IMG/VR virus record: IMGVR_UViG_3300035208_002255
Coordinates: 128,001-169,027 of that record
Origin: a virus
Taxonomy: Duplodnaviria > Heunggongvirae > Uroviricota > Caudoviricetes
Length of the DNA stretch: 41,027 bases
Reading direction: 5' to 3' (one strand)
Positions 13,937 to 35,697 of the stretch are shown here, piece after piece. The translations under genes were made by a program, and so were the position numbers. Numbering within the stretch: the stretch's first letter is position 1; each line of letters starts with the position of its first letter. Under the pieces are notes generated by a model that was not told where the DNA came from, did no database searches, and was given only the letters and a program-made list of their open reading frames with translations.

Positions 13937-13948
13937 AGAAAAAAGTTG

Positions 13949-21179: not shown

Positions 21180-21207
21180 TTGACAGACTGGTCAGGTTGA
21201 GTATTAT
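21180..21207 (+). promoter_or_regulatory. Sigma70-type promoter directly upstream of motif copy 1
   Basis: TTGACA-16-TATTAT. Confidence 0.7.
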
Positions 21208-21216: not shown

Positions 21217-21244
21217 AGCCGCACGGGGCTTCTAATACTGTGAC
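21217..21244 (+). repeat. Dispersed pseudoknot motif, copy 1
   Basis: AGCCGCACGGGGCTTCTAATACTGTGAC. Confidence 0.9.
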
Positions 21245-21468: not shown

Positions 21469-21497
21469 TTGCTTTTTCACTTCTTCTCTGGCATGAT
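21469..21497 (+). promoter_or_regulatory. Sigma70-type promoter directly upstream of motif copy 2
   Basis: TTGCTT-17-CATGAT with TGG extension. Confidence 0.55.
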
Positions 21498-21503
21498 TCG
21501 ACA

Positions 21504-21531
21504 AGCCGCGTGGGGCTTCTAATTCTACGAC
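21504..21531 (+). repeat. Dispersed pseudoknot motif, copy 2
   Basis: AGCCGCGTGGGGCTTCTAATTCTACGAC. Confidence 0.9.
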
Positions 21532-21565
21532 TCTGGCATGATCGTCCATTAAATCCTCCTGACCT

Positions 21566-21579
21566 ACCTACATGTAGGT
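21566..21579. promoter_or_regulatory. 14-bp palindrome, putative operator
   Basis: ACCTACATGTAGGT; a near copy lies at 21938-21951. Confidence 0.5.
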
Positions 21580-21617
21580 GTCTGTATGAGATATATCAAG
21601 AAAGGCATAAAGTTGCA

Positions 21618-21935
21618 ATGAAAAACGACACTGAAACGACAGAAACTACAACTGAAAATACGTCCAGTAGTCTCAGTATTTTTGGACAGACGATCGGTGA
21701 GCCTGCGAATCAATGGTCACAGCGTGTAAGTTATGGGTTTGTGACCATTGAGTTGGCAACTGATGGTAACTCATCGTATATTGCAACGGCATTTTGGCGT
21801 GGCACAAACAACGTCATTTCCGTAGGTGATTGGAAGGGTTCGGCACAAGAAGCTCTTGATGTAATTCAAAGCAACATTGCTTCGATGATCAAAGAGCAAA
21901 ATGTTATGTTGTCAATATCTTTTTCACTGTCCTGA
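21618..21935 (+). CDS. Hypothetical protein, paralog A
   Basis: MKN...IFGQ.I..P....R..YG....EL......YIATA..RG shared with the next gene. Confidence 0.7.
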   Translation: MKNDTETTETTTENTSSSLSIFGQTIGEPANQWSQRVSYGFVTIELATDGNSSYIATAFWRGTNNVISVGDWKGSAQEALDVIQSNIASMIKEQNVMLSISFSLS

Positions 21936-21937
21936 TT

Positions 21938-21951
21938 AACTACATGTAGGT
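21938..21951. promoter_or_regulatory. Second copy of the palindromic putative operator
   Basis: AACTACATGTAGGT, preceded by CCTGA as in the first copy. Confidence 0.5.
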
Positions 21952-21979
21952 AGAGAAATATATGTAGGTTGGAGAAATA

Positions 21980-22276
21980 ATGAAAAACGTAAAGCAGTGC
22001 AAGATTTTTGGGCAGCCGATTGAGGTACCTGGGCCTCGGCAAAACTCCCGTATTGAGTACGGTTTGTTTTCATTTGAGCTAGACTCGAATGATGGAGAGG
22101 CTTATATCGCAACGGCTCGTCTGCGGGGCTCCAAGCATATCGTAGCTATCTCGGACTACAAGAAAGCATCTGAAGCGCTTAGCGAGGTCGAAGAGAAGGT
22201 GAAGCAGATTCTTCAAGAGCAGAAGGAAATGATCGGCTCACCTCTTGGACGTTTGTTGAGCAATGTCTCAAGCTAA
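21980..22276 (+). CDS. Hypothetical protein, paralog B
   Basis: GGAG SD; similarity to 21618..21935. Confidence 0.75.
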   Translation: MKNVKQCKIFGQPIEVPGPRQNSRIEYGLFSFELDSNDGEAYIATARLRGSKHIVAISDYKKASEALSEVEEKVKQILQEQKEMIGSPLGRLLSNVSS

Positions 22277-22293
22277 TCACTTACACAAAATAG

Positions 22294-22488
22294 TTGGGCC
22301 AGGTTTATACTGCGCATTATGTCCAAAAGCAATATGTTGATGGAGATTCTTTCAGTGGTATCAGTGGTTTGTTTTCAATTATTGGTGGCATCATAGCATG
22401 GCCATCTATAGTTGTTTTATATGCCATAATGATACCACTAAAGAAGTTTCTACAGCACAGAGTAAAGTCTAATTGCCAAAGAGGTTGA
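22294..22488 (+). CDS. Possible small membrane protein
   Basis: Hydrophobic stretch; poor start context. Confidence 0.35.
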   Translation: MGQVYTAHYVQKQYVDGDSFSGISGLFSIIGGIIAWPSIVVLYAIMIPLKKFLQHRVKSNCQRG

Positions 22489-22489
22489 A

Positions 22490-22786
22490 ATGAAGATCTA
22501 TCTTGATGATGAGCGAGCGCCACCCGAGGGATGGATTCTTGCGCGAAGCGTTCCAGTCCTTTGTCACCTACTCCAAACACATCAGGTCACTCACCTCTCT
22601 CTTGACCATGACCTTGGGGAAGATGAGATGACTGGGTATGACTTCATGCGGTGGTTGGAAGCTCAGGTGTTTAGCGGAACAATCAAAGAGATTCCTGAGA
22701 TTACTTTCCATACAGCAAACCCAACTGGCCGAAAGAATATGGAGTTGGCTCTGGCTAACATTCATAAGATGATGAGTCAATGTTAA
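22490..22786 (+). CDS. Cyclic-phosphate processing receiver domain protein
   Basis: KIYLDDER.PP.GW, LSLDHDLG, TGYD, HTANP.G. Confidence 0.85.
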   Translation: MKIYLDDERAPPEGWILARSVPVLCHLLQTHQVTHLSLDHDLGEDEMTGYDFMRWLEAQVFSGTIKEIPEITFHTANPTGRKNMELALANIHKMMSQC

Positions 22787-23673
22787 ACACAGGGTTCTCA
22801 GAAATTACCGAAGAACGTTTGCTTTACAAAGGTAAAGATCCTTGGTACGTTGAGGTTGCGATCACTGGTAGGTGCAATTTCCATTGCACCTATTGCAATA
22901 GGTTTTCTCAAAACCTTGACATGGAGAAGTTTAAAGCTTGGATTGATACCCAACAAAACCAGTTCAGGCATTTGCAAATTACCGGTGGTGAGCCCACTGT
23001 TCATCCTGAGTTTGAACAAATCGTTCAACTCTGCAGGTCGAGAACAAAGGTTCTTGGATTATCAACAAACGGATCGTGGTCATTAGAAAAGTATCTACAC
23101 CTTCCTGTTGATATGTTTTCAATCTCGTTTGATGATTACGATTTAGATATCCTTCGGTCAAGAGGTTACAACAATCCTGAGCACATTCTTAACTGTATAA
23201 AAGAACTTGCAAAGGTTCGATACGTTAATATAGGATTGGTAATTGACGAACACAATGTTTCAAGAGCTGAAGCTATTATAGATTTCCTACTTCAGCTAGG
23301 CGTATCTGATGTGAAGCTTTCAATATCAACACGAGCATTGGATACGATGCCTGTGTTTACAAAATTATATGAAGGTTATCCAATTCTATCCTACAGGGTA
23401 AACAACTTCAAAAATCAAAAACCAATGAGAGGGTACCCGGCTCCTCGATGTCACATTGCCAAGAATGACATTACTATTGTTGGTGACAAACACTATCCTT
23501 GTCTTGTTTATTTTAGGGAAAAAGGATCTGCAATCGGAAATCTTGATGATGAATCTATGCTTCAAGATAGAGAAGCTTGGAGTGAGTCTCACGATTGTTT
23601 AAAGGATCCAATCTGTAGTAAGTTTTGCATGGATTTCAAATGTGACTTCAATCACGCAAAAGGTGAACAATGA
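22780..23673 (+). CDS. Radical SAM protein (paralog of 30240..31235)
   Basis: CNFHCTYC, TGGEPT, STNGS; C-terminal HYPCLVY.RE.G..IG and DPIC..FC.D. Confidence 0.9.
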   Translation: MLNTGFSEITEERLLYKGKDPWYVEVAITGRCNFHCTYCNRFSQNLDMEKFKAWIDTQQNQFRHLQITGGEPTVHPEFEQIVQLCRSRTKVLGLSTNGSWSLEKYLHLPVDMFSISFDDYDLDILRSRGYNNPEHILNCIKELAKVRYVNIGLVIDEHNVSRAEAIIDFLLQLGVSDVKLSISTRALDTMPVFTKLYEGYPILSYRVNNFKNQKPMRGYPAPRCHIAKNDITIVGDKHYPCLVYFREKGSAIGNLDDESMLQDREAWSESHDCLKDPICSKFCMDFKCDFNHAKGEQ

Positions 23674-24050
23674 ACCCATCTATAGAAGAACATTCAATTG
23701 AAGCATGGAACTCAGAGCTTCGCTACAAGAAAGAACGCCCTTTAGATAGAGCGTTGCTCGTCATACATAATGGGAAGGCTCTTTATCTTGACCATATTGG
23801 ACCTGGGATTGAATACTACTTATCCGAATGCACTCATAAGGATGATGAATTCATCGAACCCAACGGGGTCTATATCTGGGAGGGCAAATTAATCTCGAAG
23901 GTGATCACGTACTTTGAAGGGGATCATGATTGTGAAGAAGAGCTTAATGGAACATTACGATTAGCAACACTTGACGAATGGCAAGCATATATTAATGACG
24001 AATATATCTGGGATAGAAGCGAATGGCTTTTACCAGATGAAGCAACCTAA
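23670..24050 (+). CDS. Hypothetical protein
   Basis: ATGA overlap. Confidence 0.7.
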   Translation: MNPSIEEHSIEAWNSELRYKKERPLDRALLVIHNGKALYLDHIGPGIEYYLSECTHKDDEFIEPNGVYIWEGKLISKVITYFEGDHDCEEELNGTLRLATLDEWQAYINDEYIWDRSEWLLPDEAT

Positions 24051-24078
24051 TTGGACCTGGGATTGAATACTACTTATC
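23796..24078 (+). repeat. 29-nt exact direct repeat (23796-23824 and 24050-24078)
   Basis: ATTGGACCTGGGATTGAATACTACTTATC twice. Confidence 0.9.
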
Positions 24079-24213
24079 TGATGACTTTTACTAGATTAAG
24101 AAACCCTATTCATGATTCAAATACTTTTCTAAACATATTAGTAACACTACTCCAAGAATTCTTGTTGATAAAATCCTTTTGTTTTGCTAATTGTTCTTCT
24201 AGAAAGATTTTGG

Positions 24214-24242
24214 TTGACAAAAGCTTCCCGTACTGGTACCAT
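24214..24242 (+). promoter_or_regulatory. Sigma70-type promoter
   Basis: TTGACA-17-TACCAT with TGG extension. Confidence 0.75.
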
Positions 24243-24275
24243 TGGGGGTTACTTGTGAACTTTGGAGTAAAAAGA

Positions 24276-25139
24276 ATGTCAGAGAAAATGGGACGCAAGA
24301 TGCCGGAATCCGCTTATACCAAGGCTAAGAGAATTGCAGAAGAAACCATGGATGCAATTCATGCATTAAAGTACAAGACTCCTAGTGGTAGGACCCTATC
24401 ACTGGATAAGCTTGTTACGCCAGCTGTTCGACGATCAAAGATGTACAAACCTGATTGGAATGAAGAGATCAGTGCCGAGAAGAATACATCTCCAAAGATC
24501 TCTGTTACCAGAGAATCAACTTTGGAGGCGGCGTATCGTTTGTCTGAGGACAATGCTTGTGTCCTAAACTTTGCCAGTGCGAAGCATCCGGGTGGGGGAT
24601 TTCTTCGAGGGGCTATTGCTCAGGAGGAATCCCTTGCTCGTTCTAGTGCATTGTATCATACATTGATTGAGCATCCTGAATACTATGAAGAGAATAAGCG
24701 TTCAGGTCGCAATGGTCCCGGTATCTATACGGACTATATAATCTATTCTCCTAACGTTCCTGTGATTAGAAATGATCGCGGGGATTGGTTGGAGGATCCT
24801 TACATCATGAGTGTCATTACTTCACCAGCGCCTAACCGTACCGCAATTCTTGAAGACTCAGATGATAGTACGATTACCGAGGATCAAGACAAGACTCTTG
24901 AAGAAGCTTTCAAGGCAAGAACGCTTAGAGTTCTAAATCTCATGGCCGCCAATGGTCACCGGAGTATTGTACTTGGCGCTTGGGGTTGTGGAATCTTTGG
25001 CAATGATCCTTGGAAGGTTGCGAAGATGTTTAAGGAAGCTCTTAAGGTTTGCCATTACTTCGATGAAGTGGTGTTCGCCATCTACGATTCACCAGACTCC
25101 GAAACATACAAAGCATTTGAAAAGGTATTTGCTTCTTAA
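24276..25139 (+). CDS. Bacterial-type poly(ADP-ribose) glycohydrolase (TIGR02452-like macrodomain)
   Basis: LNFASAKHPGGGFLRGAIAQEESLARSS (GGG-x6-QEE) and LGAWGCGIFGN; start after the promoter and GGAG SD. Confidence 0.9.
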   Translation: MSEKMGRKMPESAYTKAKRIAEETMDAIHALKYKTPSGRTLSLDKLVTPAVRRSKMYKPDWNEEISAEKNTSPKISVTRESTLEAAYRLSEDNACVLNFASAKHPGGGFLRGAIAQEESLARSSALYHTLIEHPEYYEENKRSGRNGPGIYTDYIIYSPNVPVIRNDRGDWLEDPYIMSVITSPAPNRTAILEDSDDSTITEDQDKTLEEAFKARTLRVLNLMAANGHRSIVLGAWGCGIFGNDPWKVAKMFKEALKVCHYFDEVVFAIYDSPDSETYKAFEKVFAS

Positions 25140-25147
25140 GGTGAATT

Positions 25148-25585
25148 ATGAAAGCTAGAAGATGTTTTGTAAGTAACTCTTCATCCAGTTCATTTGTTTT
25201 CATTGGCAACAATGGTGACTGTTCTCGTCGTGTGAAAGCTTTAGTTGAGGATGGTATTCTTATCTTGGGCACCCAAGGTGAGAATGAATTCGGCTGGGGA
25301 CCTGAAACAATTTCTGATGTCTTTAGTATGATTAACTTTGCTAAGTTGCAAGTTATCAATGGTAGCAATCCTCACTGGGGTGTTATGCTTGATGATGTTA
25401 TCAAAGAAGCAACTGGGTGTACAGAAATCATCTGGGACGAAAAACTTACCGATGAAGGATACATCGATCACCAATCATCCTCAAGCGATGGTTCTAATAC
25501 AGAAATCTTTGCGGATGAAGATACGTTGAGAAGGTTCTTGTTCTGTACAGATTCAGAAATCGTATTAGATAACGACAACCACTGA
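25148..25585 (+). CDS. Conserved phage protein with FVSNSSSSSF N-terminus
   Basis: MK.R..FVSNSSSSSF and IDHQS motifs. Confidence 0.75.
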   Translation: MKARRCFVSNSSSSSFVFIGNNGDCSRRVKALVEDGILILGTQGENEFGWGPETISDVFSMINFAKLQVINGSNPHWGVMLDDVIKEATGCTEIIWDEKLTDEGYIDHQSSSSDGSNTEIFADEDTLRRFLFCTDSEIVLDNDNH

Positions 25586-25591
25586 GGTATT

Positions 25592-25981
25592 ATGACGCTC
25601 GATATACCAGACACGCTTGAGTTTCATGGTGTTAAATTCCCACGTCATTTTGGTGGGATCTATAAATCATCAGAGCTTGGTGATGAGTTATATTTAGACA
25701 CCATTATACAAAGACTTCCTAATATGGATCATGTAAAAGTCCAAATCATTGTGAACCATTTAGTATCGATGGAGAGCAAATGGTGCAAAACATACGCGGA
25801 AGCGCTTAGCTTTCTTGAAGCTAGGACAAAACCATTTACAAAATTCAATCAAGAAAAGAAAATGATTGATGCAATAACCAATGCATTAGAAGCATTGATA
25901 GCTGGAAGTGAGCATATCAGCACTGCAATTGATATACTTGCTGACGCACTTAATAGTAAAGAAAAACAGCCTAGCCAATAA
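25592..25981 (+). CDS. Hypothetical protein
   Basis: GAGG SD. Confidence 0.65.
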   Translation: MTLDIPDTLEFHGVKFPRHFGGIYKSSELGDELYLDTIIQRLPNMDHVKVQIIVNHLVSMESKWCKTYAEALSFLEARTKPFTKFNQEKKMIDAITNALEALIAGSEHISTAIDILADALNSKEKQPSQ

Positions 25982-25992
25982 AGAAAAGTAAC

Positions 25993-26199
25993 ATGCCAGG
26001 ACCAGTTAGTGAATCTTATCAAGGGCCGTCTGATGACGGTCCATATGTTCCATCATGGTGTTATAAGAATGGACCGCATATGTGTCCATGTGGTCATCAT
26101 GAAGGATATCATAACGATAAAGGCGAATGCATTCTTCAACATAAATGTAAGTGTACAGGATTGCCAGAAGAGTGTTGTACAGCAGTAGGGGAAGGATAA
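25993..26199 (+). CDS. Small Cys/His-rich protein
   Basis: CPCGHHEGYH...C...CKC. Confidence 0.6.
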   Translation: MPGPVSESYQGPSDDGPYVPSWCYKNGPHMCPCGHHEGYHNDKGECILQHKCKCTGLPEECCTAVGEG

Positions 26200-26421
26200 A
26201 TGTTAACCAATATAGAGATTAGTCAAATACTAGACAGACTTGATAATACGAAGATTTCGTGTCGAAGACTTACACACTCTTCTTGTTCGATGCGTGTTAT
26301 TGGTGTATATCCAGAAGGCACAACGCAGGAAGAAGTTGAAAAGGAAGTTCAAGGAACATTTGGTGGTAGGTTTGTTTCATTCGACAAAGGCCTATTTGAA
26401 TACATTGCATATACGGATTGA
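26200..26421 (+). CDS. Hypothetical protein
   Basis: Abuts the previous stop; GTFGGRF...FEYIAYTD. Confidence 0.65.
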   Translation: MLTNIEISQILDRLDNTKISCRRLTHSSCSMRVIGVYPEGTTQEEVEKEVQGTFGGRFVSFDKGLFEYIAYTD

Positions 26422-26430
26422 GAGTTCACC

Positions 26431-26664
26431 ATGAGTTTATCTGATTGTTCAAAATGTTGGGATACTCCGTGTACTTGTGGATACGAATGGGAAAAGTATT
26501 CGTTAGAATACCTTCTTAAGTTTCGCACCATGATTAACGGTGTTATTGATAATAAACAACTTCACAACACTGAAAAGAAATGTGTTAGATGTGGTCGTTC
26601 TTTTAACGATCAATACAATATCCTTTGCTTAGATTGTAATGGAGATGACGATGCAACAGGATAA
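26431..26664 (+). CDS. Small Cys-rich protein
   Basis: SDCSKCWDTPCTCG and further CxxC pairs. Confidence 0.65.
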   Translation: MSLSDCSKCWDTPCTCGYEWEKYSLEYLLKFRTMINGVIDNKQLHNTEKKCVRCGRSFNDQYNILCLDCNGDDDATG

Positions 26665-26935
26665 AATGGAAATCGAATTCGCTTCAGATAATCTTGCAGC
26701 GCAATACAATAAAGAGATTCAAGAAATCTTTGCAAGCCTCAGACTCGCTGATGGTCACGAGCTCAGAGCGCGTGGCATTTGGGCTTCAGATGAATCTTAC
26801 ATCTCTGACATCGGACCATCTGAAGAAGCCTTGGAAAAGGTTAGCAAAGAGCTTGGTATCACTCTAACAAAGCATATGAGATTCGTTGACGCTGCGATGG
26901 AGTTGAGGAACAATCGCTCTAATGCAAAATCATAA
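26651..26935 (+). CDS. Hypothetical protein
   Basis: GGAG SD; start uncertain. Confidence 0.6.
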   Translation: MQQDKMEIEFASDNLAAQYNKEIQEIFASLRLADGHELRARGIWASDESYISDIGPSEEALEKVSKELGITLTKHMRFVDAAMELRNNRSNAKS

Positions 26936-27049
26936 ATCAAATATAGGGCACGATATCGAACGTCAACTTAAAGCCGTCAGCGGCGATAGTAAGGTTTTGT
27001 GCAGAGGCATGAAGAGAGTGTTTTAGTTCTTACCAACGTGAGGTTTAAG

Positions 27050-27307
27050 ATGGCTTGTTCAAGATGTAAATCAATTCGTATTGCAAATGCTGGTGGAAAA
27101 TGCTCAGATCTTTTCGGAGTTAGCATTCAGATTGATGAGGAAAACGTTCAGGAGCATGACGGATATGTTCCAGATGATTTGGGAATTGGCGGTGGAGATT
27201 ACATGGAGGTTTCGTATTGCCTTGATTGCGGACAGATACAAGGCACATGGCCTCTCCCGAGAACTGAACTAGAAGAAAAAGCACTTGCAAAGCTCGAAGA
27301 AGAGTGA
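27050..27307 (+). CDS. Small Zn-binding protein
   Basis: CSRC...GKCSD...GYVP..LGIGGGDY...CLDCGQIQG. Confidence 0.7.
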   Translation: MACSRCKSIRIANAGGKCSDLFGVSIQIDEENVQEHDGYVPDDLGIGGGDYMEVSYCLDCGQIQGTWPLPRTELEEKALAKLEEE

Positions 27308-27319
27308 TACAGTGCGGGT

Positions 27320-27733
27320 ATGTCCGACCACAAGTATACCCTTCATTTGACCGAGAGACAGGCCAGAGTTATCGTAGATGCTTTGGATCTGTTCTCCCGT
27401 ATTGGTATGGGGCAACTGAAAGAAGTTGCATATGTGTTGCGACAAAACCCATTACCAAGCTCTGACCCTGATCTTGAGGCGAGAACAACTCTGCTATCTG
27501 AGATTAGGGATAAACTAGATACCCTTTCCCGATATTGGATGAAGGGGCCCGGGTTTTATGGAATTACTTCCAAATCAATCTCAGATAGGTTTAGAATTGC
27601 TTTTGATATTCAACAAGTGATTCGTCACAGACTAGCCTGGGATCGTAATCCACAAGGTGATATTACCGTAGATTTCGATAATCCGACGAAAACATCCGAA
27701 GAAGATTTACCAAAGATTGAAACTGTCAAATGA
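27320..27733 (+). CDS. Hypothetical protein
   Basis: ORF track. Confidence 0.7.
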   Translation: MSDHKYTLHLTERQARVIVDALDLFSRIGMGQLKEVAYVLRQNPLPSSDPDLEARTTLLSEIRDKLDTLSRYWMKGPGFYGITSKSISDRFRIAFDIQQVIRHRLAWDRNPQGDITVDFDNPTKTSEEDLPKIETVK

Positions 27734-28050
27734 ATGCGCAATACAGTTTGGAGCAACAACTACAAGAACTAATTGGTATTGCAAACCGAGAAGGTTTGTA
27801 TGACGCCGCTGATTGGTTGAAGACAGCATTACATCAACCTAGCAGAGTGTTCGATGACAGTGATTGGAATGCATTCAATGATGTCTTTTTTGATCTAGGA
27901 TCAGATTCCAAATTAGATCGTAAAACTCTTCAACAGGCTTACGATAGCCTTCCAAATCATATCAAGTCTATTGCAATTCAGTGGGGTATGGGTGATACTG
28001 TGTTCCGCGATGAAGCTTGCAAATTTCTAAAAAAGATCAAAAATACCTAG
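27730..28050 (+). CDS. Hypothetical protein
   Basis: ATGA overlap. Confidence 0.65.
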   Translation: MNAQYSLEQQLQELIGIANREGLYDAADWLKTALHQPSRVFDDSDWNAFNDVFFDLGSDSKLDRKTLQQAYDSLPNHIKSIAIQWGMGDTVFRDEACKFLKKIKNT

Positions 28051-28056
28051 GTCAAT

Positions 28057-28413
28057 ATGGAAAAGCCACCTATTGTATTTCAACTACCGGATACCGGGGA
28101 GTGGGCAGTTGGTACTATCAAAACTGTTCACCCAACAAAGGGTGCTGCGGATAAAGCGGCAAGCAAAGTAAAACATGAGGTTCCTGAAGAAGAACCCCAA
28201 GAACAAGAACAACTTGGAGTGCCCGATCATATAGCCATTTTCTGGGAAGATAAACAGTTCACATTTAGCTTCTTTGAGAACAGATCTGGAATGTGCATTG
28301 CTGTATGTGACACTCCTGGATATGGAAAATTCTTTGGTAAATCAACAGTCTGGTGGAGTGCGGCTGAAGAGTGTTTAGCTGATATCGTAATGAACGAGAG
28401 AACAAATTCCTAA
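28057..28413 (+). CDS. Hypothetical protein
   Basis: ORF track. Confidence 0.65.
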   Translation: MEKPPIVFQLPDTGEWAVGTIKTVHPTKGAADKAASKVKHEVPEEEPQEQEQLGVPDHIAIFWEDKQFTFSFFENRSGMCIAVCDTPGYGKFFGKSTVWWSAAEECLADIVMNERTNS

Positions 28414-28676
28414 TGCCAGAACCTCAGCCAGAACAAAAACTTTGCAGAAGAGATAGGGAAAAGCTTAGAAAGCAAGCTCTCTATAAAAAGCAAAAAGAAA
28501 ATCCAGAGTTCGTTGCCAAAGAGAAAGTAAGATTAAGAAACCGCTCACGCGAATATGAAAAGTTTAATCGTGATATATGTATTTTCATTCCAGTATTACG
28601 GGAATGTCTAGGTCTAGATCCTAGATCTGATATCTGGGCAAGGCAAAAGAATGACCATTCCACTCCGATGGATTAA
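28413..28676 (+). CDS. Basic hypothetical protein
   Basis: TAATG overlap. Confidence 0.6.
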   Translation: MPEPQPEQKLCRRDREKLRKQALYKKQKENPEFVAKEKVRLRNRSREYEKFNRDICIFIPVLRECLGLDPRSDIWARQKNDHSTPMD

Positions 28677-28887
28677 GAATGATGTTGAAGGTTCCAAGTT
28701 TACATTCCGATATAATGGAACTGAGTTTACTTACTTAGGTGCCCCTATCAATGCTGACTTTGAATTGAGCTATGAAACTCTAGCTCCATACGTAACCCAA
28801 GTCCTAGACCTAGCCGCCCCACTAGAAGGTAACGGTCTTATGATTAGGTTTGTGGAAATCAAAAACAACACAGTGAAAGTTTGGTAG
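28651..28887 (+). CDS. Hypothetical protein
   Basis: ORF track. Confidence 0.6.
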   Translation: MTIPLRWIKNDVEGSKFTFRYNGTEFTYLGAPINADFELSYETLAPYVTQVLDLAAPLEGNGLMIRFVEIKNNTVKVW

Positions 28888-28888
28888 T

Positions 28889-29272
28889 ATGACTACTGAA
28901 GCTGAAGCACAGAAGCGTTTGGAAGAGTTTAAAGAAGCCGCTGCCAAAGGTGAGGTGGAAATAAAAGCAACAGACGAAGAGATCCATGAGGTAATGGAGA
29001 CTTTCAAATCTGGCCGAGAAATAGACTTTACTGTGACTCGTGCTGAGATTTCTGGTGTTTGGAGCTATAATGGGGGTCAAGGCTTTGAGATCTCTTGGGG
29101 TACAAAGTCAGCTGGCTTTGGAACAATTACATTTACCACAGATGAAAAAGGAAATACTCGTATAGATAATGAGGGAATGGATATCGAATTCTGTGGTAAC
29201 GTTCTTCTAAAACTTCTCGAAAATGCATTTAAGCAGAAAGAGAAAGATACAGAGAAAAGCGATAAAGAGTAA
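28889..29272 (+). CDS. Hypothetical protein
   Basis: ORF track, tight packing. Confidence 0.7.
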   Translation: MTTEAEAQKRLEEFKEAAAKGEVEIKATDEEIHEVMETFKSGREIDFTVTRAEISGVWSYNGGQGFEISWGTKSAGFGTITFTTDEKGNTRIDNEGMDIEFCGNVLLKLLENAFKQKEKDTEKSDKE

Positions 29273-29919
29273 TGGAAATCAAATTCTGTGTCAGTAATAT
29301 CTGTACAGCCTTTCAATCTCAAACGGTTGGCTCCAAAGTATTAAACACTCAAGTCTTTCTAGAAGATTTGCGGTCTGCTCTGCAGAGCTATAATCCATCA
29401 AAGGACCGCGAACCCGGACAACACTTCGTGTTGATGCCAGACTCTTTTCACACCGTAAGTGCGGGTGATGGTCTTAAGTCTGATAATACTGAAGACTACA
29501 TTGTTAGAACACATCGCGAGGGACCTAAGATGTTCCTTAAGCGGCATTGCGCTGGAAGCGTTAAGTTCCTAGCTTGTGTAGTCTATACTCGCGAAGCTTA
29601 TCTTAAAGATCCTGACTACGATGGCTCTGAGGATCTTGGTGATGCAACCCACATCATCGTTGCAGTGATTGCTTCTAGTGGACCCAATGCTCCAGTAACT
29701 CCGTTCAGGTTTGTTCATAACTTGGCTGGTGGAAATCTGGAATACAAACAACCGCCTCGAAAAGATTTTGCTCCGCAGATACCTTCGTATTGGCACAATT
29801 ATCTAAGTCCACATTGGATGGATTATGCTAAGGCATTAGAGGATTGGGGCGAATTCATTACCAAGAAGGCTAAAGAAGTTGTAGAGCATTGGAATTCATA
29901 CAGCGTTGTAGCTGATTAA
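29272..29919 (+). CDS. DUF3228-like protein
   Basis: VVYTRE, IVAVIA..., P.TP....NL.GG, VEHW pattern; TAATG overlap. Confidence 0.55.
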   Translation: MEIKFCVSNICTAFQSQTVGSKVLNTQVFLEDLRSALQSYNPSKDREPGQHFVLMPDSFHTVSAGDGLKSDNTEDYIVRTHREGPKMFLKRHCAGSVKFLACVVYTREAYLKDPDYDGSEDLGDATHIIVAVIASSGPNAPVTPFRFVHNLAGGNLEYKQPPRKDFAPQIPSYWHNYLSPHWMDYAKALEDWGEFITKKAKEVVEHWNSYSVVAD

Positions 29920-29927
29920 GGTGAAGT

Positions 29928-30158
29928 ATGTTTAAAAACTTTGATTGGATGATTTTAATAATAAAAATCTTTGTGGTTATATGTGTATATATAATTGTAT
30001 TTTCGCTTGTTATGGCATTCAAAGAATCTCAGAGAGAAATTGATAAGAAAAACCAATGTACAACTGCTTGTCACCCATATGCAGTTATGTCATCCGAAGA
30101 TAAGTATTGCCTATGCGCTAACAGTTCTACAGTTTTGTGGCGTAAAGATATCAAGTAG
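29928..30158 (+). CDS. Small membrane protein
   Basis: N-terminal TM helix and Cys-rich tail. Confidence 0.6.
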   Translation: MFKNFDWMILIIKIFVVICVYIIVFSLVMAFKESQREIDKKNQCTTACHPYAVMSSEDKYCLCANSSTVLWRKDIK

Positions 30159-30180
30159 AATAAAAGCAGTACGAAAGTTC

Positions 30181-30209
30181 TTGCACTTCGAAAACTCTTC
30201 TGGTAGAGT
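30181..30209 (+). promoter_or_regulatory. Sigma70-type promoter
   Basis: TTGCAC-17-TAGAGT with TGG extension. Confidence 0.55.
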
Positions 30210-30239
30210 GCTGCAGTTGCCGATGATTGAGAGGACGCA

Positions 30240-31235
30240 ATGAAACTCGAAGAGATTGGTTTTTATACTCTATGCGATGAACGTGCAGCTCACTCCAATG
30301 GTGAGTCTCCTATGTGGCGATGTGAAATGATCCTCACATCAGCCTGCAATTTCAAGTGCCCGTATTGCCGCCCTCTTCGTGAGGATTGCCGTGGCACTAT
30401 GCCTGTAGAGCGTGCTCTTTACACTCTTGGCCAATGGTGTGACCAGGGTCTAAAGAATATCAGATTCTCTGGCGGTGAACCTACACTATACAAAGACCTT
30501 GTTACTCTAGTAAAGTATTGCAAGCAACGCGGCGTGGAGCGTATTGCAATCTCATCCAATGGTTCTGCTTCGCGTGAATTGTATGCTGAGCTAATCGAAG
30601 CTGGCGTTAATGACTTCAGTATTTCATTGGATGCTTGTTGCGCAGAGGATGCAAACAAGATGTCCGGTGGTGTATTGAAGGTCATCGACAATGTTTCAGA
30701 GAACATTCGGTGGCTTGCGTCTAAGACCTATGTCACAGCGGGCGTTGTTCTTACCAATGAGAACTACAAAGAGATGAATAACATCATTCGCTTTGCAGAC
30801 TCTTTGGGATGTGCAGATGTTCGAATCATCTCAGCGGCTCAAGAGAACTTCCTATTGGAAGGTGTACTTGGCATTGAGCAAGAGCTGCTTGATAAGCATC
30901 CTATTCTAAAGTACAGAGCGAATAACATTCGCAATGGACGCGGGGTCCGTGGTTTAAGCGATGGAGATCCTCATACATGTTATCTAATGTATGATGACTC
31001 TGTGGTTGCAGGGGATCAACATTTCCCTTGTATTATTCACCTACGCGAAGGTGGCGCACCCATTGGGAAGATTGGTCCGAACATGAGGCAAGAGCGCATT
31101 GAATTCTTGCAGAAGCATGATCCTCACAAGGATCCTATTTGCAAAGCTAATTGCCTGGACGTATGTTCAGATCACCTTAGGAAGTGTGATTCTTTTCGGA
31201 CGGACAAGAGCCAATCAGCGCACAAATCTCCTTAA
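30240..31235 (+). CDS. Radical SAM protein
   Basis: CNFKCPYC, SGGEPT, SSNGS; C-terminal HFPCIIH.RE.G..IG and DPIC..NC.D. Confidence 0.9.
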   Translation: MKLEEIGFYTLCDERAAHSNGESPMWRCEMILTSACNFKCPYCRPLREDCRGTMPVERALYTLGQWCDQGLKNIRFSGGEPTLYKDLVTLVKYCKQRGVERIAISSNGSASRELYAELIEAGVNDFSISLDACCAEDANKMSGGVLKVIDNVSENIRWLASKTYVTAGVVLTNENYKEMNNIIRFADSLGCADVRIISAAQENFLLEGVLGIEQELLDKHPILKYRANNIRNGRGVRGLSDGDPHTCYLMYDDSVVAGDQHFPCIIHLREGGAPIGKIGPNMRQERIEFLQKHDPHKDPICKANCLDVCSDHLRKCDSFRTDKSQSAHKSP

Positions 31236-32040
31236 ATTTATCATGCTTACGATCCATGTGAATAGAACTATCTTGGTAAATGAAATCTAAAAACCTTCTA
31301 CCAACTCTATTACCATGGAGGACAAGTTGTTTAATTTCAGATCCTTTCTTCGCATGACATATACTTGTCTTTATTCCAAGATGTAATAGTTTATCACGCA
31401 ACGTCTCTGTAAAGTCTTGTGTACCTAAAATAGAGATAGCAATTTGGCCAGAAGAAAAACTAAGAGAGCCATCTCCATCGAAATATCCTCTTACAAAATG
31501 TGAGAGTAATTCATCTGGTACACAAGTTGGAAACTTTACTTTCAGACTTTTAGCTTTAACTAATCCATAACTTTCAAGTTGTTGGCTGATATGTTTACTT
31601 GATATAGTAAGACAGTAACTATCTTTACGAAAATAATCTTTGCCATTATCTTTAAACCATTTACCTTTCCTCTTTAAAAGAGGTCTATCACATTTGTAAA
31701 TCAACTTACAAAGTTTAGTTAACAAACTAACATCTTGTTCACTAAGTATTAGGCGAACACAAGTCATTTCCGTGCTATTACAACCATCAGCATACAAAAT
31801 ACCAAGAAAATAAGCTTTCTCTGGTGTGTTGATAGTATCAAAGAAATCTTCATAAACATCATATGTACGATTTGCTTGACTATGATCTCTGGTTTTAATT
31901 TTTTCCTTCTTAAGAAGGTAATGAATAGACCCAGGGTTAACTCCATATTCTGTCCCTAGTTCTAAAGTACTTTTACCAGAAAGATATTTCTCAATTATCT
32001 CTTGTGAGAATCGTTTATCAAGTTTGCGTTTCTTTTCCAT
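31177..32040 (-). mobile_element. Free-standing LAGLIDADG homing endonuclease with N-terminal HTH
   Basis: AYFLGILYADG and HFVRGYFDGDGS motifs; only minus-strand gene; AT-rich; AAGGA SD before ATG 32040. Confidence 0.88.
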
Positions 32041-32177
32041 AATCACTATCCTTATTTTAAAGAGATGTAACTAATAACAGCTTTAAAAGCTCCTCGACAA
32101 AATCTGGAAGAGATTTTGTAGGCGAGAAACTACAACAACTAACTCTTTGGTAATAAAATCAATGCATACAACTCAAG

Positions 32178-32831
32178 TTGTCAGAATCTGTGAAAGCTCA
32201 TGCGGCGGATATGAGTATTGCAAATACACTTGCACATCCCGGGTTGCAATTGGATTCATTGGGTAGATGGGATCGATTCATGACAATCAATCATCGAGCT
32301 TATCAGTTCATTAAAACCCACATTGAGTTTTACATTGATTCTCACAATCGTGATGCGTGTTTTCGTATCATGGAGGAAAACAAGGAACGATTTGAGAAAG
32401 CTCCTGGTTCAACTCACAATCATCAAGCATGGGAAGGTGGTTATCTAGATCATATCCTAGAAACAATGGATATCGCATATATAATTCTTCCAACCCTTAA
32501 ATTAACAGGAAGACCAGTACCAAAGTTCGGCGATGTGATCCTTTGTCTTTTTCTCCATGACATTGAGAAGCCGTGGAAGTATGTTCTGGGTCAAAACGAA
32601 TTGGATGATCCAGACCTTAATACCAAGACAGATCGCCATGAGTTCCGAAGAAAACTCATCCAGCTCTACGGTTTCGAGTTGACAGAAGAGCAGTGGAATG
32701 GTATTGAGTACGCCGAGGGTGAGATTCATAACTACTCCAATCACAAACGGAACATGGGACCATTGGCAGCTTTAGTTCATATGTGCGATGTGTGGAGTGC
32801 TAGAGGATGGCCTGAATATCCTCATGGGTAA
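32178..32831 (+). CDS. HD-domain phosphohydrolase (start uncertain)
   Basis: APGS..NHQA..GGYLDH, FLHDIEK, HMCD. Confidence 0.8.
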   Translation: MSESVKAHAADMSIANTLAHPGLQLDSLGRWDRFMTINHRAYQFIKTHIEFYIDSHNRDACFRIMEENKERFEKAPGSTHNHQAWEGGYLDHILETMDIAYIILPTLKLTGRPVPKFGDVILCLFLHDIEKPWKYVLGQNELDDPDLNTKTDRHEFRRKLIQLYGFELTEEQWNGIEYAEGEIHNYSNHKRNMGPLAALVHMCDVWSARGWPEYPHG

Positions 32832-32833
32832 TT

Positions 32834-33091
32834 ATGAATGTCAAAGAACTCAAAGAAGCAATTGTAAATCTTCCTGATGATATGGAGGTGATTCTCCAAA
32901 AAGATTCTGAAGGAAACGGCTACTCTCCATTGGCGGGTGCAGATCCTGACACAGTATATGTACCAAGGAATACTTGGTCCGGTGAAACATACAGTACGAA
33001 CTATGGAGCTTCAGAACATTGTCTGGAAGAAGATGAATGGGAAAAGCTCAAAGCTGGTCCACACGCTTTGGTTCTATTTCCAGTGAACTAA
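32834..33091 (+). CDS. Hypothetical phage protein
   Basis: LPDDMEVILQKDSEGNGYSPL. Confidence 0.7.
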   Translation: MNVKELKEAIVNLPDDMEVILQKDSEGNGYSPLAGADPDTVYVPRNTWSGETYSTNYGASEHCLEEDEWEKLKAGPHALVLFPVN

Positions 33092-33113
33092 TTCAGAACG
33101 GTTCGAAAAACTC

Positions 33114-33142
33114 TTGACTTTCGAGAGCCTAGTGAGTAAAGT
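33114..33142 (+). promoter_or_regulatory. Sigma70-type promoter (a second, extended -10 TGATATTAT lies at 33175-33183)
   Basis: TTGACT-17-TAAAGT. Confidence 0.65.
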
Positions 33143-33190
33143 TCTCCCTCGCTGGAACGAAAGTTCTCGGTCCTTGATATTATCGATGAA

Positions 33191-33218
33191 AGCCGCATGG
33201 GGCTTCTAATACTATGAC
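33191..33218 (+). repeat. Dispersed pseudoknot motif, copy 3
   Basis: AGCCGCATGGGGCTTCTAATACTATGAC. Confidence 0.9.
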
Positions 33219-33260
33219 ACAATCACGGAGGAGGCGGGGCGTGTGCCCTCCTGAAATGGA

Positions 33261-33710
33261 ATGATTGAACTCAAAGATGGAACGTATTACAAGGCCGTTT
33301 GGAATTTCGAGTTCCGCGCAGGGACTGGGATTATTCCAACTGAACATGACGGAAATGTTCTAGGCGCGTTGTTCACAACGGACCCAGAAAGAAAACTCTG
33401 GACAATGACGTATCGTTTCAGGTACTATGTGGACGACATCAACGACAATACTTCTCAAGATGTCAAGAATTGGTACAGGGCTGAAAATACTGGACCTGAA
33501 GATAAAATCTGGGAAGATGCCAAAAAAGCTATGACCATGTTGGCTACAGTTCAGCTATCAACTCTCAACTGTGTTATGATTGAGAGTGATAAGTCAGAAG
33601 ATCAGTTGAAAAAGATTCAGGAACTCCCTGGTATGAATGTTGAACAAAAACTCAATTCAGAACAAGAAGAAGCCAAGATCAATGTTCGACCAAGTTCCGC
33701 ATTGAACTAA
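33261..33710 (+). CDS. Hypothetical protein flanked by motif copies 3 and 4
   Basis: ORF track. Confidence 0.7.
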   Translation: MIELKDGTYYKAVWNFEFRAGTGIIPTEHDGNVLGALFTTDPERKLWTMTYRFRYYVDDINDNTSQDVKNWYRAENTGPEDKIWEDAKKAMTMLATVQLSTLNCVMIESDKSEDQLKKIQELPGMNVEQKLNSEQEEAKINVRPSSALN

Positions 33711-33737
33711 ACCGCATGGGGCTTCTAATACTATGAC
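33710..33737 (+). repeat. Dispersed pseudoknot motif, copy 4
   Basis: AACCGCATGGGGCTTCTAATACTATGAC. Confidence 0.88.
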
Positions 33738-33744
33738 AACTAAT

Positions 33745-33868
33745 CAGAGCTGCCGATACCTCCCTCCTTTTTTTAGGTGGCTCTGTGCGGGAGTTTCCAT
33801 GACTCGCCTCACGCACTCCCTGTGTGCGCAGTTGCTGGACTGCATCACATACCCTCCCCTCTTGTGTG
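33745..33868 (+). ncRNA. Candidate sRNA: hairpins with CCUCC-rich loops
   Basis: CAGAGCTGCC/GGTGGCTCTG with loop ..ACCTCCCTCC..; CACATA/TGTGTG with loop CCCTCCCCTCT. Confidence 0.55.
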
Positions 33869-33886
33869 TAAACAAAACCAGCGCTT

Positions 33887-33958
33887 GGGACATTAACTCA
33901 ATGGTAGAGTAGGACCCTTTTAAGGTCAAGGCTACAGGTTCGAGTCCTGTATGTCCCA
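33887..33958 (+). tRNA. tRNA-Lys(TTT)
   Basis: Acceptor GGGACAT/ATGTCCC, D arm ACTC/GAGT, anticodon loop CTTTTAA, T loop TTCGAGT; no encoded CCA. Confidence 0.93.
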
Positions 33959-34009
33959 CTAACCGATTGGTTGATAGGACTTAACAGGATGAAACCTGTT
34001 AAATTCACT

Positions 34010-34167
34010 GACAATCTCTAACCTGTGAAGCAACTGGGTTTGCGAAAGAACTCATGAATCTTTCAAGATAAAAAGGTTGCGATAGCGTGAAGTGATGCTA
34101 GCTACTAAACACTTCTCAACTACTCTGAGTTGACAATAAGCGGCAGAGTCGAAAATTAGAGATTGTC
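34010..34167 (+). ncRNA. Candidate 158-nt multibranch RNA
   Basis: Perfect 12-bp closing stem GACAATCTCTAA/TTAGAGATTGTC enclosing several hairpins. Confidence 0.6.
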
Positions 34168-34177
34168 TTAATTTAAA

Positions 34178-34204
34178 AGCCGCATGGGCTTCAAATACTA
34201 TGAC
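34178..34204 (+). repeat. Dispersed pseudoknot motif, copy 5
   Basis: AGCCGCATGGGCTTCAAATACTATGAC. Confidence 0.88.
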
Positions 34205-34231
34205 CGGAGATACGGTGCCACGAAAATGATT

Positions 34232-34299
34232 TTCACAAAGGATATAGGTTCGATTCCCATCAGTAACGTCATCTAATATGGCTTAAGATACTTTGTGAG
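34232..34299 (+). ncRNA. Circularly permuted tRNA-like domain (T arm before D arm; YrlA/Y-RNA-like topology)
   Basis: TTCACAAAG/CTTTGTGAG stem enclosing ATAGG-TTCGATT-CCCAT, a short linker, then ATCT-AATATGGCTTA-AGAT-A. Confidence 0.65.
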
Positions 34300-34302
34300 T
34301 TT

Positions 34303-34376
34303 GCCCTAATAGCTCAGTTGGATAGAGCAGGAAATTTCTAATTTTCAGGTCGGGAGTTCGAATCTCTCTTGGGGTA
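34303..34376 (+). tRNA. tRNA-Arg(TCT)
   Basis: Acceptor GCCCTAA/TTGGGGT, D arm GCTC/GAGC, anticodon loop TTTCTAA, T loop TTCGAAT; no CCA. Confidence 0.93.
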
Positions 34377-34383
34377 CTAAATT

Positions 34384-34704
34384 ATGTATTGTGATTTTTG
34401 CCAATGTCATATGTGTCAAACAGGTCAAACACACTATGTTGCCATTGACGGCTCCATAGATGAACCTGATGGAGTAATGCGAGTATTGTTTCACACACAA
34501 ACAATTGATGGTCATTGGATTTGTGAAACGTGTTATACATATGATGTGTGCGCAAGAAATAAATCTGATCCATGTGAAGGTTTATGTGGAGAATTCAAAT
34601 GCGATCACAGACCAAAACTAATTAATAACGAGTGGACATTCTGGACTTGGCGAACTGGCTCGCAAGAGAATACAATTGAAGAACCTCACTATGACTTAAC
34701 TTAA
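34384..34704 (+). CDS. Cys-rich hypothetical protein
   Basis: CDFCQCHMC, WICETC, CDHRP. Confidence 0.65.
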   Translation: MYCDFCQCHMCQTGQTHYVAIDGSIDEPDGVMRVLFHTQTIDGHWICETCYTYDVCARNKSDPCEGLCGEFKCDHRPKLINNEWTFWTWRTGSQENTIEEPHYDLT

Positions 34705-34723
34705 TCTCTGGTAACATATATAT

Positions 34724-34874
34724 GCACTGGTAACTCAATTGGTCAGAGTATGATTAGAATTGATTCGCGGTAAGTTCTAATCGGTCAGATGAAAACTTTT
34801 GGTTGCTCTTAGGTTGTAGTCTGATTTATCACCCGGCAGGGAGAAGGTTGTTGGTTCGAATCCAGCTCAGTGCA
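34724..34874 (+). ncRNA. tRNA-like RNA with the anticodon/variable region replaced by a ~99-nt three-hairpin insert
   Basis: Acceptor GCACTGG/TCAGTGC-A, D arm ACTC-AATTGGTCA-GAGT, T arm GTTGG-TTCGAAT-CCAGC. Confidence 0.75.
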
Positions 34875-35124
34875 CGCGAGCCATTTAACTAATGGCTAGT
34901 CGGAGCCGTAAACAAATAAGATATCTGGTAACAGATCTCTTATGACCGATGAATAGAAGTAAAATGGTTTTTTACAAAAACGGATTGACAAGTAATCACC
35001 TCTAGGCTAGACCAATGTGGTGAAAGTTGTGGTGGTTGAGCACCGCGTATGCATTGATACATACAAAGATAAGCAACAAAATAATAAGCTCTTTACTTAT
35101 ATCAAGTTGCTCATCACTCAACTT

Positions 35125-35141
35125 GCTTCTAATACTATGAC
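35125..35141 (+). repeat. 3' half copy of the pseudoknot motif
   Basis: GCTTCTAATACTATGAC, 25 nt before copy 6. Confidence 0.8.
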
Positions 35142-35166
35142 GTTCGACCCCAACCCAGTGCAACAT

Positions 35167-35193
35167 AGCCGCATGGGCTTCTAATACTATAAC
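35167..35193 (+). repeat. Dispersed pseudoknot motif, copy 6
   Basis: AGCCGCATGGGCTTCTAATACTATAAC. Confidence 0.85.
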
Positions 35194-35212
35194 CTAAAAA
35201 CACGAATAGAAT

Positions 35213-35515
35213 ATGAGTAAAGATCATAAGGTCAAGGATGCGTCAGCTGACATGACCGAAAGGCGATTACTTCCAAATCATTGGGTTGGTGTAATGCCAA
35301 AACGTCAATTACCGCAGCTATCTCATTCAGTTGCTCAAGCGCGTCTTTGTGGCAGTTGTCATGGATGTTCTAATCGAGCCGTAGACGATAAGTCTATTAT
35401 AACCACTGCGGGAGTAGATTACAGCGATATCGTGTATTGTTCTATGCATGGGTGGCAATTTGAGAGTATAGAACAAGAGCGGATGTACACCTGCTTCGAC
35501 TTTCATGAAGCTTAA
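35213..35515 (+). CDS. Hypothetical Cys/His-containing protein
   Basis: ORF track. Confidence 0.6.
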   Translation: MSKDHKVKDASADMTERRLLPNHWVGVMPKRQLPQLSHSVAQARLCGSCHGCSNRAVDDKSIITTAGVDYSDIVYCSMHGWQFESIEQERMYTCFDFHEA

Positions 35516-35529
35516 TGATGCCTAAGCCC

Positions 35530-35557
35530 TTGACTTCTTTTGAAAGTCTGGTACAGT
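35530..35557 (+). promoter_or_regulatory. Sigma70-type promoter directly upstream of motif copy 7
   Basis: TTGACT-16-TACAGT with TGG extension. Confidence 0.7.
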
Positions 35558-35562
35558 AACTC

Positions 35563-35589
35563 AGCCGCGTGGGCTTCTAATTCTACGAC
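35563..35589 (+). repeat. Dispersed pseudoknot motif, copy 7
   Basis: AGCCGCGTGGGCTTCTAATTCTACGAC. Confidence 0.9.
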
Positions 35590-35606
35590 CGCCCTGACCC
35601 TTGCAT

Positions 35607-35678
35607 GCTTCCTAAGCATTGTTGGCGATGCACTTGATTTGTAATCATGAGAAATCGGTTCGATTCCGGTGGGAAGCT
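35607..35678 (+). tRNA. tRNA-Thr(TGT)
   Basis: Acceptor GCTTCCT/GGGAAGC, D arm GCAT/ATGC, anticodon loop TTTGTAA, T loop TTCGATT; no CCA. Confidence 0.9.
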
Positions 35679-35697
35679 CAACTTGTAGACTAAAAAC

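Follow-up and report, generated by a model that had tools for sequence, protein, structure and literature searches.

Solitary type V-M-like CRISPR repeat ends followed by local phage DNA in a contig of a tailed phage

The DNA examined here (the window) is a stretch of 41,027 nt from a virus of the class Caudoviricetes, positions 128,001 to 169,027 of IMG/VR record IMGVR_UViG_3300035208_002255, and it forms the right end of a virus contig of 169,027 nt with a guanine-cytosine (GC) content of 41%. Dispersed over this contig are copies of a short motif, hereafter the handle, which almost certainly represents the final 28–31 nt of the repeats in a Cas12m-like (type V-M) CRISPR family carried by phages. 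The sequences that follow the handles, their tails, are, as far as alignments with related phages indicate, the phage's own local DNA and not foreign spacers, since the corresponding sites are empty in relatives. Handles are polymorphic, being present in some strains and absent in others, a result that goes beyond an earlier note on this DNA, in which the motif was suggested to be a scaffold followed by a guide. Because the array and the gene are missing, the contig holds a set of V-M-type solitary repeats and not a V-M system. In regard to function, we give an even chance to the reading that each copy yields a Cas12m guide RNA directed against sibling phages that lack the insert, while the site of the copy itself is left alone.

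Results

Pattern scans of viral, metagenome and genome collections returned 3, 20 and 2 stretches, respectively. Several of them are true arrays with repeats of ~36 nt and mostly 35–39-nt spacers, in which the last 28 nt of the repeat correspond to the motif, and in L015, L017, L035, L036, L038 and L100 the array is located directly behind an open reading frame (ORF) of 530–610 amino acids (aa). The handle at C1 54244 in the left arm of our contig differs from the L100 repeat at 1 of 28 nt. The array-linked protein matches PADLOC Cas12u1 (E 3e-31) and a Cas12f-labelled model (4e-32); its best PDB matches are Cas12m chains, with five Cas12m-type chains among 9 matches, including 8pm4, listed as Transposase, which we take to be GoCas12m. 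A word search found 128 relatives of this protein. The clade is distantly related to the solved Cas12m proteins (profile E 7e-22 to 8e-10) and is phage-borne, being present in four IMG/VR records and, on a short contig, in one of the 251 Polyangiaceae genomes searched. Since the RuvC residues D, E and D are kept in all three motifs, proteins of the clade may cut DNA. No Rfam family matches the motif at the gathering level, and in the known-phage collection the handle and a marker protein were unmatched and the effector had distant matches only. An antitermination signal, a promoter element and a riboswitch were dropped as candidates once arrays with the same motif appeared.

The motif folds as an H-type pseudoknot in which AGCC pairs with GGCT and CATGG with CTATG. 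Among 44 copies, picked out of the 144 found so as to cover the variants, 99.0% of 393 cells of the nine pairs are paired, with 33 two-sided changes distributed over five of the pairs; none of 500 shuffles scored as high and slid controls were 31–48% paired, although the search patterns fixed purine or pyrimidine at stem-2 positions and so favoured pairing somewhat. Compensatory stem variants occur within the contig itself. Such a fold is known from the Cas12m2 scaffold, where, besides a stem and a pseudoknot, a G faces the next-to-last A, 7 of the 36 nt at the start are disordered, and the guide duplex has 17 bp (PMC10442227). PmCas12m has a 50-nt CRISPR RNA (crRNA), cuts its own guide at 17–18 nt and uses a YTN protospacer adjacent motif (PAM) (bioRxiv 2026.03.26.714355), while other orthologs have T- and C-rich PAMs, and those with D-E-D that were tested bound without cutting (PMC11013384). 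The proposal of a scaffold, after which the guide would follow, is thus supported, because these 28 nt form the end of the repeat in arrays beside Cas12m-like genes and the 17 nt that do lie between copy 7 (ending at 35589) and tRNA-Thr (starting at 35607) equal the Cas12m guide length. RNase P, put forward as the enzyme releasing this RNA, is not needed as a trimmer, because PmCas12m trims its guide itself.

In G005, the Cas12m array of L038 (5700-8230), with ~34 repeats, shows many variants of the repeat and spacers of irregular length, unlike an array built by Cas1-Cas2. In G267, L164 carries a 493-aa TnpB/Cas12-like ORF (325-1806) with N replacing the first RuvC aspartate, and ~1 kb after it three spaced repeats of another kind (2873-3113).

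In the window the motif was matched 9 times against 0.06 expected by chance. The whole contig holds 14 lone copies (13 full and one half) and the reversed contig none. All 14 are oriented with the transcription of the surrounding genes or transfer RNAs (tRNAs) and lie between genes or at gene edges. In 12 of them no second repeat is found nearby, and both stems are likewise intact in 12; between scores 12 and 38 no series of decaying copies is seen. A CRISPR array of repeats with foreign spacers was not found on the contig, whose sole repeat-spacer-repeat unit consists of a half repeat and a decayed tRNA end followed by copy 6.

Relatives carry empty alleles for three of the 14 copies, namely copy 2 (21504..21531, + strand), copy 4 (33710..33737, +) and the left-arm copy at C1 48141; at the other 11 the relatives are filled, rearranged or not in hand. 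Copy 2, with the stem-2 variant CGTGG/CTACG, is absent in L031, and the C1 48141 copy in L029; read placement gave one weak joint (side 30) near C1 48141 and nothing firm. Copy 4 lies at the stop codon of ORF 33261-33710 and is lacking, together with four further bases (32 nt, 33710-33741), in L026 and in contigs of sequencing runs X3 and X4, but is present in a contig of run X7; X3 and X4 represent two studies and X7 a third, and the X4 contig has a depth of 2. Three further sites show the reverse, being filled in L022, L026 and L031 and empty in our contig, which the respective tails match at 15/17, 16/17 and 16/17 positions: 28841..28857 (+), 33863..33879 (+) in the tRNA-Lys leader, and 21606..21622 (-), matched by the tail of the second L031 handle. 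The last one covers the start of gene 21618-21935, a gene absent from L031. This gene and its paralogue, 21980-22276, both small, lie behind a repeated leader hairpin; L031 keeps only the gene matching 21980-22276, and its handle tail is the inverted start of the first paralogue. Aligned stretches between these strains are ~78–96% alike, and sequences of distant jumbo relatives are too diverged to show any empty alleles.

Filled and empty states are in two cases reciprocal. At copy 4 the contig has the handle, and 125 nt further on, in the tRNA-Lys leader, it has none, while L026 shows the reverse arrangement; the contig is also filled at copy 2, where L031 is empty but has a handle ~50 nt further on whose tail matches the contig. 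The upstream junctions vary: some show duplications, L022 has a deletion, and L031 carries 30 nt in inverted form, whose source gene it lacks. Of 34 solitary copies, three (copy 2 and those in L026 and L034) have target duplications on either side of the handle. For copy 2 the duplicate, 21486..21497 (+), holds an extended -10-like box and is identical to 21531-21542, as the earlier note had stated; its alternative of a simple local duplication is likewise right, the site being empty in L031. The predicted 17-nt guide of this copy (21532..21548, +) matches the empty L031 allele at 16/17 and its own upstream duplicate at 13/17 positions.

The bases preceding the matched sites are TTG for copy 4, TTA for the site filled in L022, TTT, on the - strand, for that of the second L031 handle, TCT for that filled in L026 and AAC for C1 48141; for copy 2 they are TTC in its own duplicate and ATC in L031. 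TTN therefore precedes 3–4 of the 6 jumbo-phage junctions, or 3–4 of 7 if the duplicate in the GC-rich genome G008, with CTG before the site, is included, compared to a local TT frequency of 0.088 (binomial P 0.018 for three and 0.002 for four). The expectation of TTN/YTN was set beforehand from published Cas12m PAMs.

Targets outside the phage, for which the earlier note proposed a comparison of the tails with phage and host genomes, were no better than control or null. PAM-flanked matches of the 14 tails numbered 0 in 590 kb of six other phage records (null mean 0.115), and the tail of copy 7, the one tail compared with 121 Polyangiaceae genomes, gave 16 matches with YTN in front against 15 for the control. 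Five exact matches of this tail in IMG/VR, at 3 distinct sites preceded by ATG, AAC or CAC, were taken as chance. The match between the sequence after copy 5 and ku (34206-34217 and 14213-14224) is real, and the suspicion that it is fortuitous was correct, because among 5000 20-mers drawn at random from the contig, 27.6% contain a 12-mer that recurs exactly, compared to 3 of 14 tails; this match also misses the first guide base.

Solitary handles were observed in other records as well. In G008 (L034 4980-5070, and L101) a lone handle is positioned inside the 3′ end of an ORF that reads as integrase-like, beside a gene that reads as GMP-synthase-like, both labels being taken from the sequence, and is flanked by a 34-nt near-duplicate of its tail. 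L102 also has a lone handle, behind which its 3′ end is echoed twice in short form.

Copy 1 (21217..21244, +; stem-2 variant CACGG/CTGTG) is preceded at a distance of 9 nt by a sigma-70-like promoter, predicted from an 11/12 consensus match (21180..21207, +); promoter and handle recur in L031 with a similar tail and in L027 with another tail and another downstream gene. Copy 3 (33191..33218, +) is also present in L026. Copy 5 (34178..34204, +) has a three-G form and is followed by what reads as a decayed tRNA-like stretch. The half copy (35124..35141, +) comprises the 3′ 18 nt, without stem 1 and the 5′ strand of stem 2, and is separated by 25 nt (35142..35166, +) from copy 6 (35167..35193, +), a three-G form with one broken stem-2 pair. 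The earlier note described this layout correctly as a half copy, 25 nt and a copy; the 25 nt, however, are not a spacer but a decayed local tRNA 3′ end, because they align with the T-arm and acceptor end of a tRNA-like gene at 34724..34874 (+; Rfam tRNA 37 bits, called by ARAGORN with an intron), whose 3′ end they resemble. As a whole, 35050-35166 is a decayed paralogue of this intron-like tRNA call, now hosting the half handle. Copy 7 (35563..35589, +), again a three-G form, follows at 5 nt a sigma-70-like promoter with a TG extension (35530..35557, +), likewise a consensus match; its 17-nt tail (35590..35606, +) is the leader of tRNA-Thr(tgt) (35607..35679, +), and no target above chance was found for it. 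Copy 8 (39540..39567, +) lies outside the range covered by the earlier note, and five further copies are found in the left arm (C1 48141-59240, -).

Among all full copies, a strong sigma-70-like site precedes 2 of 13, compared to 0.4% of random positions, and a site scoring 8 or more precedes 5 of 13, compared to 7.8% of 5000 random positions. An inverted repeat with 8-bp arms and a 14-nt gap lies 4–5 nt before the handle in three copies of the contig (G000 C1 51434-51467, 54110-54144 and 54244-54278, all -) and in three of relatives (L029 57-117 and 3014-3075; L030 27-87), and the tails differ; the element may act as an operator or as the leader hairpin of an array, and a few looser matches elsewhere are not linked to handles. 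The tail of the C1 51407 handle starts with the sequence of a tRNA trailer, which is repeated 26 nt further on. This conserved trailer of ~15 nt follows several tRNA genes of the phage (G000 C1 44254, 51228 and 55048, -; 51378-51404) and resembles a boxA antitermination signal.

In regard to the phage itself, the contig appears to be the accessory arm of a genome of roughly 400 kb belonging to a jumbo phage, with the core arm outside it, because the 208-kb relative G001 is collinear with the left arm and continues past the left end of the contig into core genes, encoding tail sheath, baseplate, PhuZ, helicase and reductase. The completeness of G001 is estimated as 49%, and the "100% complete" label of our contig rests on its end repeats alone. 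These are inverted repeats of 272 bp (window 40756-41027 and G000 C1 1-272), AT-rich with an internal palindrome, which may represent the boundary of an invertible 169-kb arm rather than a genome end, since G001 continues past the equivalent point. Among 210 ORFs compared with Pfam and 57 with PHROG, no match to a capsid, tail, polymerase, Cas or TnpB family was found. From the occurrence of the repeat family, the host group would be Polyangiaceae. A comparison of a 19-kb stretch of the window with 201 Polyangiaceae genomes had, among the matches listed, tRNA and transfer-messenger RNA (tmRNA) only, and therefore gave no host link.

The contig has 40 tRNA calls, among them a 95-nt tRNA with a stop anticodon (tta) called by ARAGORN at G000 C1 31840-31934 (-), as well as a tmRNA at 36620-36981 (Rfam 98.5 bits), missed by ARAGORN. 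An ATP-dependent DNA ligase gene adjoins ku at 12852-14941 as a phage-borne end-joining pair, which could help in fixing irregular junctions at handle insertions. A free-standing LAGLIDADG-like ORF at 31177-32046 (-) is oriented against its gene block, and in the left arm tRNAs are interspersed with HNH genes and ORFs related to it. Small ORFs of a large paralogous family, beginning with a serine-rich motif and without a family-wide Pfam match, are found at 25148-25585 and, ~10 in succession, at G000 C1 86600-93900.

Discussion

Several mechanisms could lead to such a distribution of handles. If they serve as guides against sibling phages, a local promoter or operon read-through would produce the handle RNA, which Cas12m would cut before the handle and ~17 nt after it, as PmCas12m does, and then load. 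For another type V effector of phages one repeat is enough (bioRxiv 2026.04.20.719267). The filled allele would be immune because its target is preceded by the GAC of the handle in place of a PAM. During co-infection, the complex would bind the empty allele of the rival at a promoter, a tRNA leader or a gene start and would block its transcription. Cas12m itself would be supplied by the unsequenced part of the phage or by another phage in the cell. The likely origin of new copies would be recombination between a repeat-spacer unit and its own target; recombination of phages with arrays, driven by spacers, was reportedly described by Varble and colleagues in 2019.

AT-rich phages of this kind, judging by L025 and P0123, have carried cas12m, at least one of them having lost most of the gene. 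L025 (30% GC) shares an intergenic element with our phage and has two handles of the AT-rich form before a 51-aa ORF corresponding to the N-terminus of the Cas12m family (hhalign probability 97%, E 3e-11). P0123 is a full-length family member on short contigs with an amino-acid bias like that of the phage proteome (ratio 0.77 vs 0.74). A word search found no full-length relative of the L025 fragment, and a search for relatives with the AAA ATPase found none. In the phage G004, cas12m, an 11-repeat array, a 3-repeat cluster and four lone handles occur in one genome.

A number of observations weigh against guides aimed at siblings. Insertion itself makes a tail match the empty allele, therefore only the PAM bias and the reciprocity favour targeting, and TTN is missing at 2–3 of the six junctions. 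The sample is small, with empty alleles for no more than three of the 14 own copies, and the array spacers gave no convincing protospacer, so that they did not yield the PAM of the clade. No pair of guide and empty allele among the six is perfect (15–16/17 or one indel), and five of them carry a mismatch or a one-base indel within the first 12 positions, where a defect abolishes the activity of PmCas12m (bioRxiv 2026.03.26.714355). Such pairs may have resulted from drift or escape, since the strains are far from identical in the aligned stretches. The promoter counts are set against null positions that are mostly coding DNA, and no RNA dataset is listed among the sequencing runs with the phage, X7 being probably DNA. 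Finally, the absence of visible Cas and TnpB-like genes that the earlier note gave for the window extends to the ORFs scanned over the contig, and the Cas12- or TnpB-like gene for which it proposed a search in the rest of the genome was found neither on the 169-kb contig nor, as cas12m, in G001. In 19 related jumbo-phage records, one of them 91% complete, no protein of the clade and no handle were found; two weak TnpB-type matches there belong to ORFs outside the Cas12m-like clade and without a handle.

Alternatively, the copies could be RNA anti-CRISPR decoys, produced in bulk at promoters and in tRNA operons so as to saturate the Cas12m of a rival phage or prophage with guides harmless to this phage, the tail being irrelevant. 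We consider this doubtful, yet it is compatible with guides aimed at siblings and both roles can coexist. Many sense-oriented copies in highly transcribed tRNA regions, with tails that are arbitrary local DNA without foreign targets, would be expected of decoys, as would the carriage of the Cas12m clade on other phages (the four IMG/VR records and the single Polyangiaceae genome) and the failure to find cas12m on the contig. Solitary repeats are known to inhibit type V-A systems (PMC10651486), and a non-targeting crRNA-like RNA sequesters Cas12a (bioRxiv 2024.10.29.618823). On the other hand, decoys do not predict the TTN bias at the junctions or the reciprocal matches, the 19 relatives manage without handles, and the AT-rich handles before the cas12m remnant in L025 point to the lineage's own system.

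It is rather improbable, in our view, that the copies are functionless scars of escape events, in which a unit of repeat and spacer from an attacking Cas12m array entered its own target by recombination and split the PAM from the protospacer, or remains of a cas12m system lost by the lineage. Such an origin would account for the junction position and the PAM bias with no expression at all, as well as for the target duplications, of which that of copy 2 keeps the -10 box in place. The truncated cas12m in L025, the half copy, the copy with a broken pair and the failure to find an effector also fit, and the compensatory variants, which are present in arrays too, could be inherited and not selected in the contig. 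However, most copies keep both stems and no decay series is seen, the hairpin-plus-handle cassette with different tails at three own sites and three in relatives indicates copying within the lineage, and the second unit of L031 has its inverted target in the transcribed orientation.

A bolder possibility, which we likewise regard as unlikely, is that the 28-bp handle acts as a selfish element of minimal size which homes under RNA guidance. It would land between a PAM and the next bases and turn those bases into a guide; Cas12m, borrowed in trans, would attack the empty allele of a co-infecting sibling, and the handle would be copied in.

Least probable of all, and in fact highly improbable, is self-regulation, in which handles on messages and tRNA precursors of the phage itself would be cut or bound by Cas12m, with copy 2 repressing its own promoter: the 11-nt seed of copy 2 behind TTC over its own extended -10 box exceeds chance as an anchored duplication (swapped tails reach 8 nt at most, save one homologous pair in 550 swaps), 10-nt seeds suffice for Cas12a repression by crRNA-like RNAs (bioRxiv 2024.10.29.618823), copies lie 17–87 nt before tRNAs and genes, and G004 combines cas12m and array with lone handles, yet a PAM-flanked 10-nt seed in the own contig is found for this one tail of 14 (shuffled mean 0.37), most of the tRNA calls have no handle in front and the sites are not conserved between strains. 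The general autoregulation through own promoters that had been suggested for the motif is consequently reduced to one copy at best.

Among the known systems close to the handles is type V-M CRISPR-Cas12m, represented by MmCas12m/Cas12m2, GoCas12m, PmCas12m and the phage-borne MvCas12m. Shared characters are a ~36-nt repeat with a 3′ stem and pseudoknot ending in AC and a G opposite the next-to-last A (PMC10442227), as well as the absence of a trans-activating crRNA (tracrRNA), a predicted ~17-nt guide, a putative T-rich PAM and effectors of 520–600 aa (PMC10442227, PMC11013384, bioRxiv 2026.03.26.714355). The differences lie in the lone, dispersed and trimmed handles, in tails that are flanking DNA, and in the array and cas gene, which are not on the contig. 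Cas12m with an array has been published in a Polyangiales phage (bioRxiv 2026.09.14.751636).

Single viral repeats, often behind a promoter and away from cas genes, are also known as phage solitary repeat units or RNA anti-CRISPRs (Racrs; PMC10651486, PMC11656645). In contrast to those, we found 14 copies in one genome at polymorphic, PAM-biased sites, and the partner system is phage-borne instead of belonging to the host; the main text and 9 supplementary files of PMC10651486 contain no mention of V-M or V-U and no matching repeat word. Viral mini-arrays resemble the handle guides proposed here in that a virus-encoded guide is directed against a close relative with Cas in trans, with reciprocal matches between strains (PMC11656645), but here there is no repeat-spacer-repeat unit, and the guide is the DNA beside the insert and not DNA from a distant locus. 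Copy 2, with a repeat and a tail bearing a short promoter seed, is reminiscent of CreR, Cracr and regulatory mini-arrays (bioRxiv 2024.10.29.618823, 2023.03.03.530964), whereas the best anchored match of the tails upstream of 8 cas12m genes or remnants, a set that does not include the cognate promoter, is 7 nt. The homing of IS200/IS605 elements by TnpB and omega-RNA is alike in layout, with a motif, an element and a guide taken from the flank in succession and vacant sites as targets (PMC10690162). It differs by a long omega-RNA instead of a 28-nt CRISPR handle; transposon ends are lacking at our sites, the upstream junctions are variable, and scans of the 210 ORFs gave no PF07282 match over the cut-off and no transposase family. 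In the literature covered, mostly open-access texts without bioRxiv supplements, we found no account of Cas12m handles dispersed in many copies, with guides derived from the flank and with filled and empty alleles, or of repeat capture at a protospacer, and the part of PMC12607003 drawn on holds nothing on the locus.

Lone phage CRISPR repeats are known; with filled and empty alleles of the same sites in hand, their origin and the relevance of the sequence that follows them become directly testable. Also mapped is a family of compact Cas12m-like proteins, tracrRNA-free and more than 120 in number, in which the catalytic triad is intact and the handle, at 28 nt, is naturally minimal. If insertion on the PAM side is true, phages would be able to turn DNA of their own into new Cas12 guides with no need of Cas1-Cas2, which would bear on spacer gain by phage-borne Cas12m systems, lacking adaptation genes, and on the step from the flank-derived guides of TnpB to CRISPR arrays. 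Should the handle be a homing element, a CRISPR repeat would be a mobile element of its own that produces guides with no help from Cas1-Cas2, and this may be how Cas12m arrays without adaptation genes are seeded.

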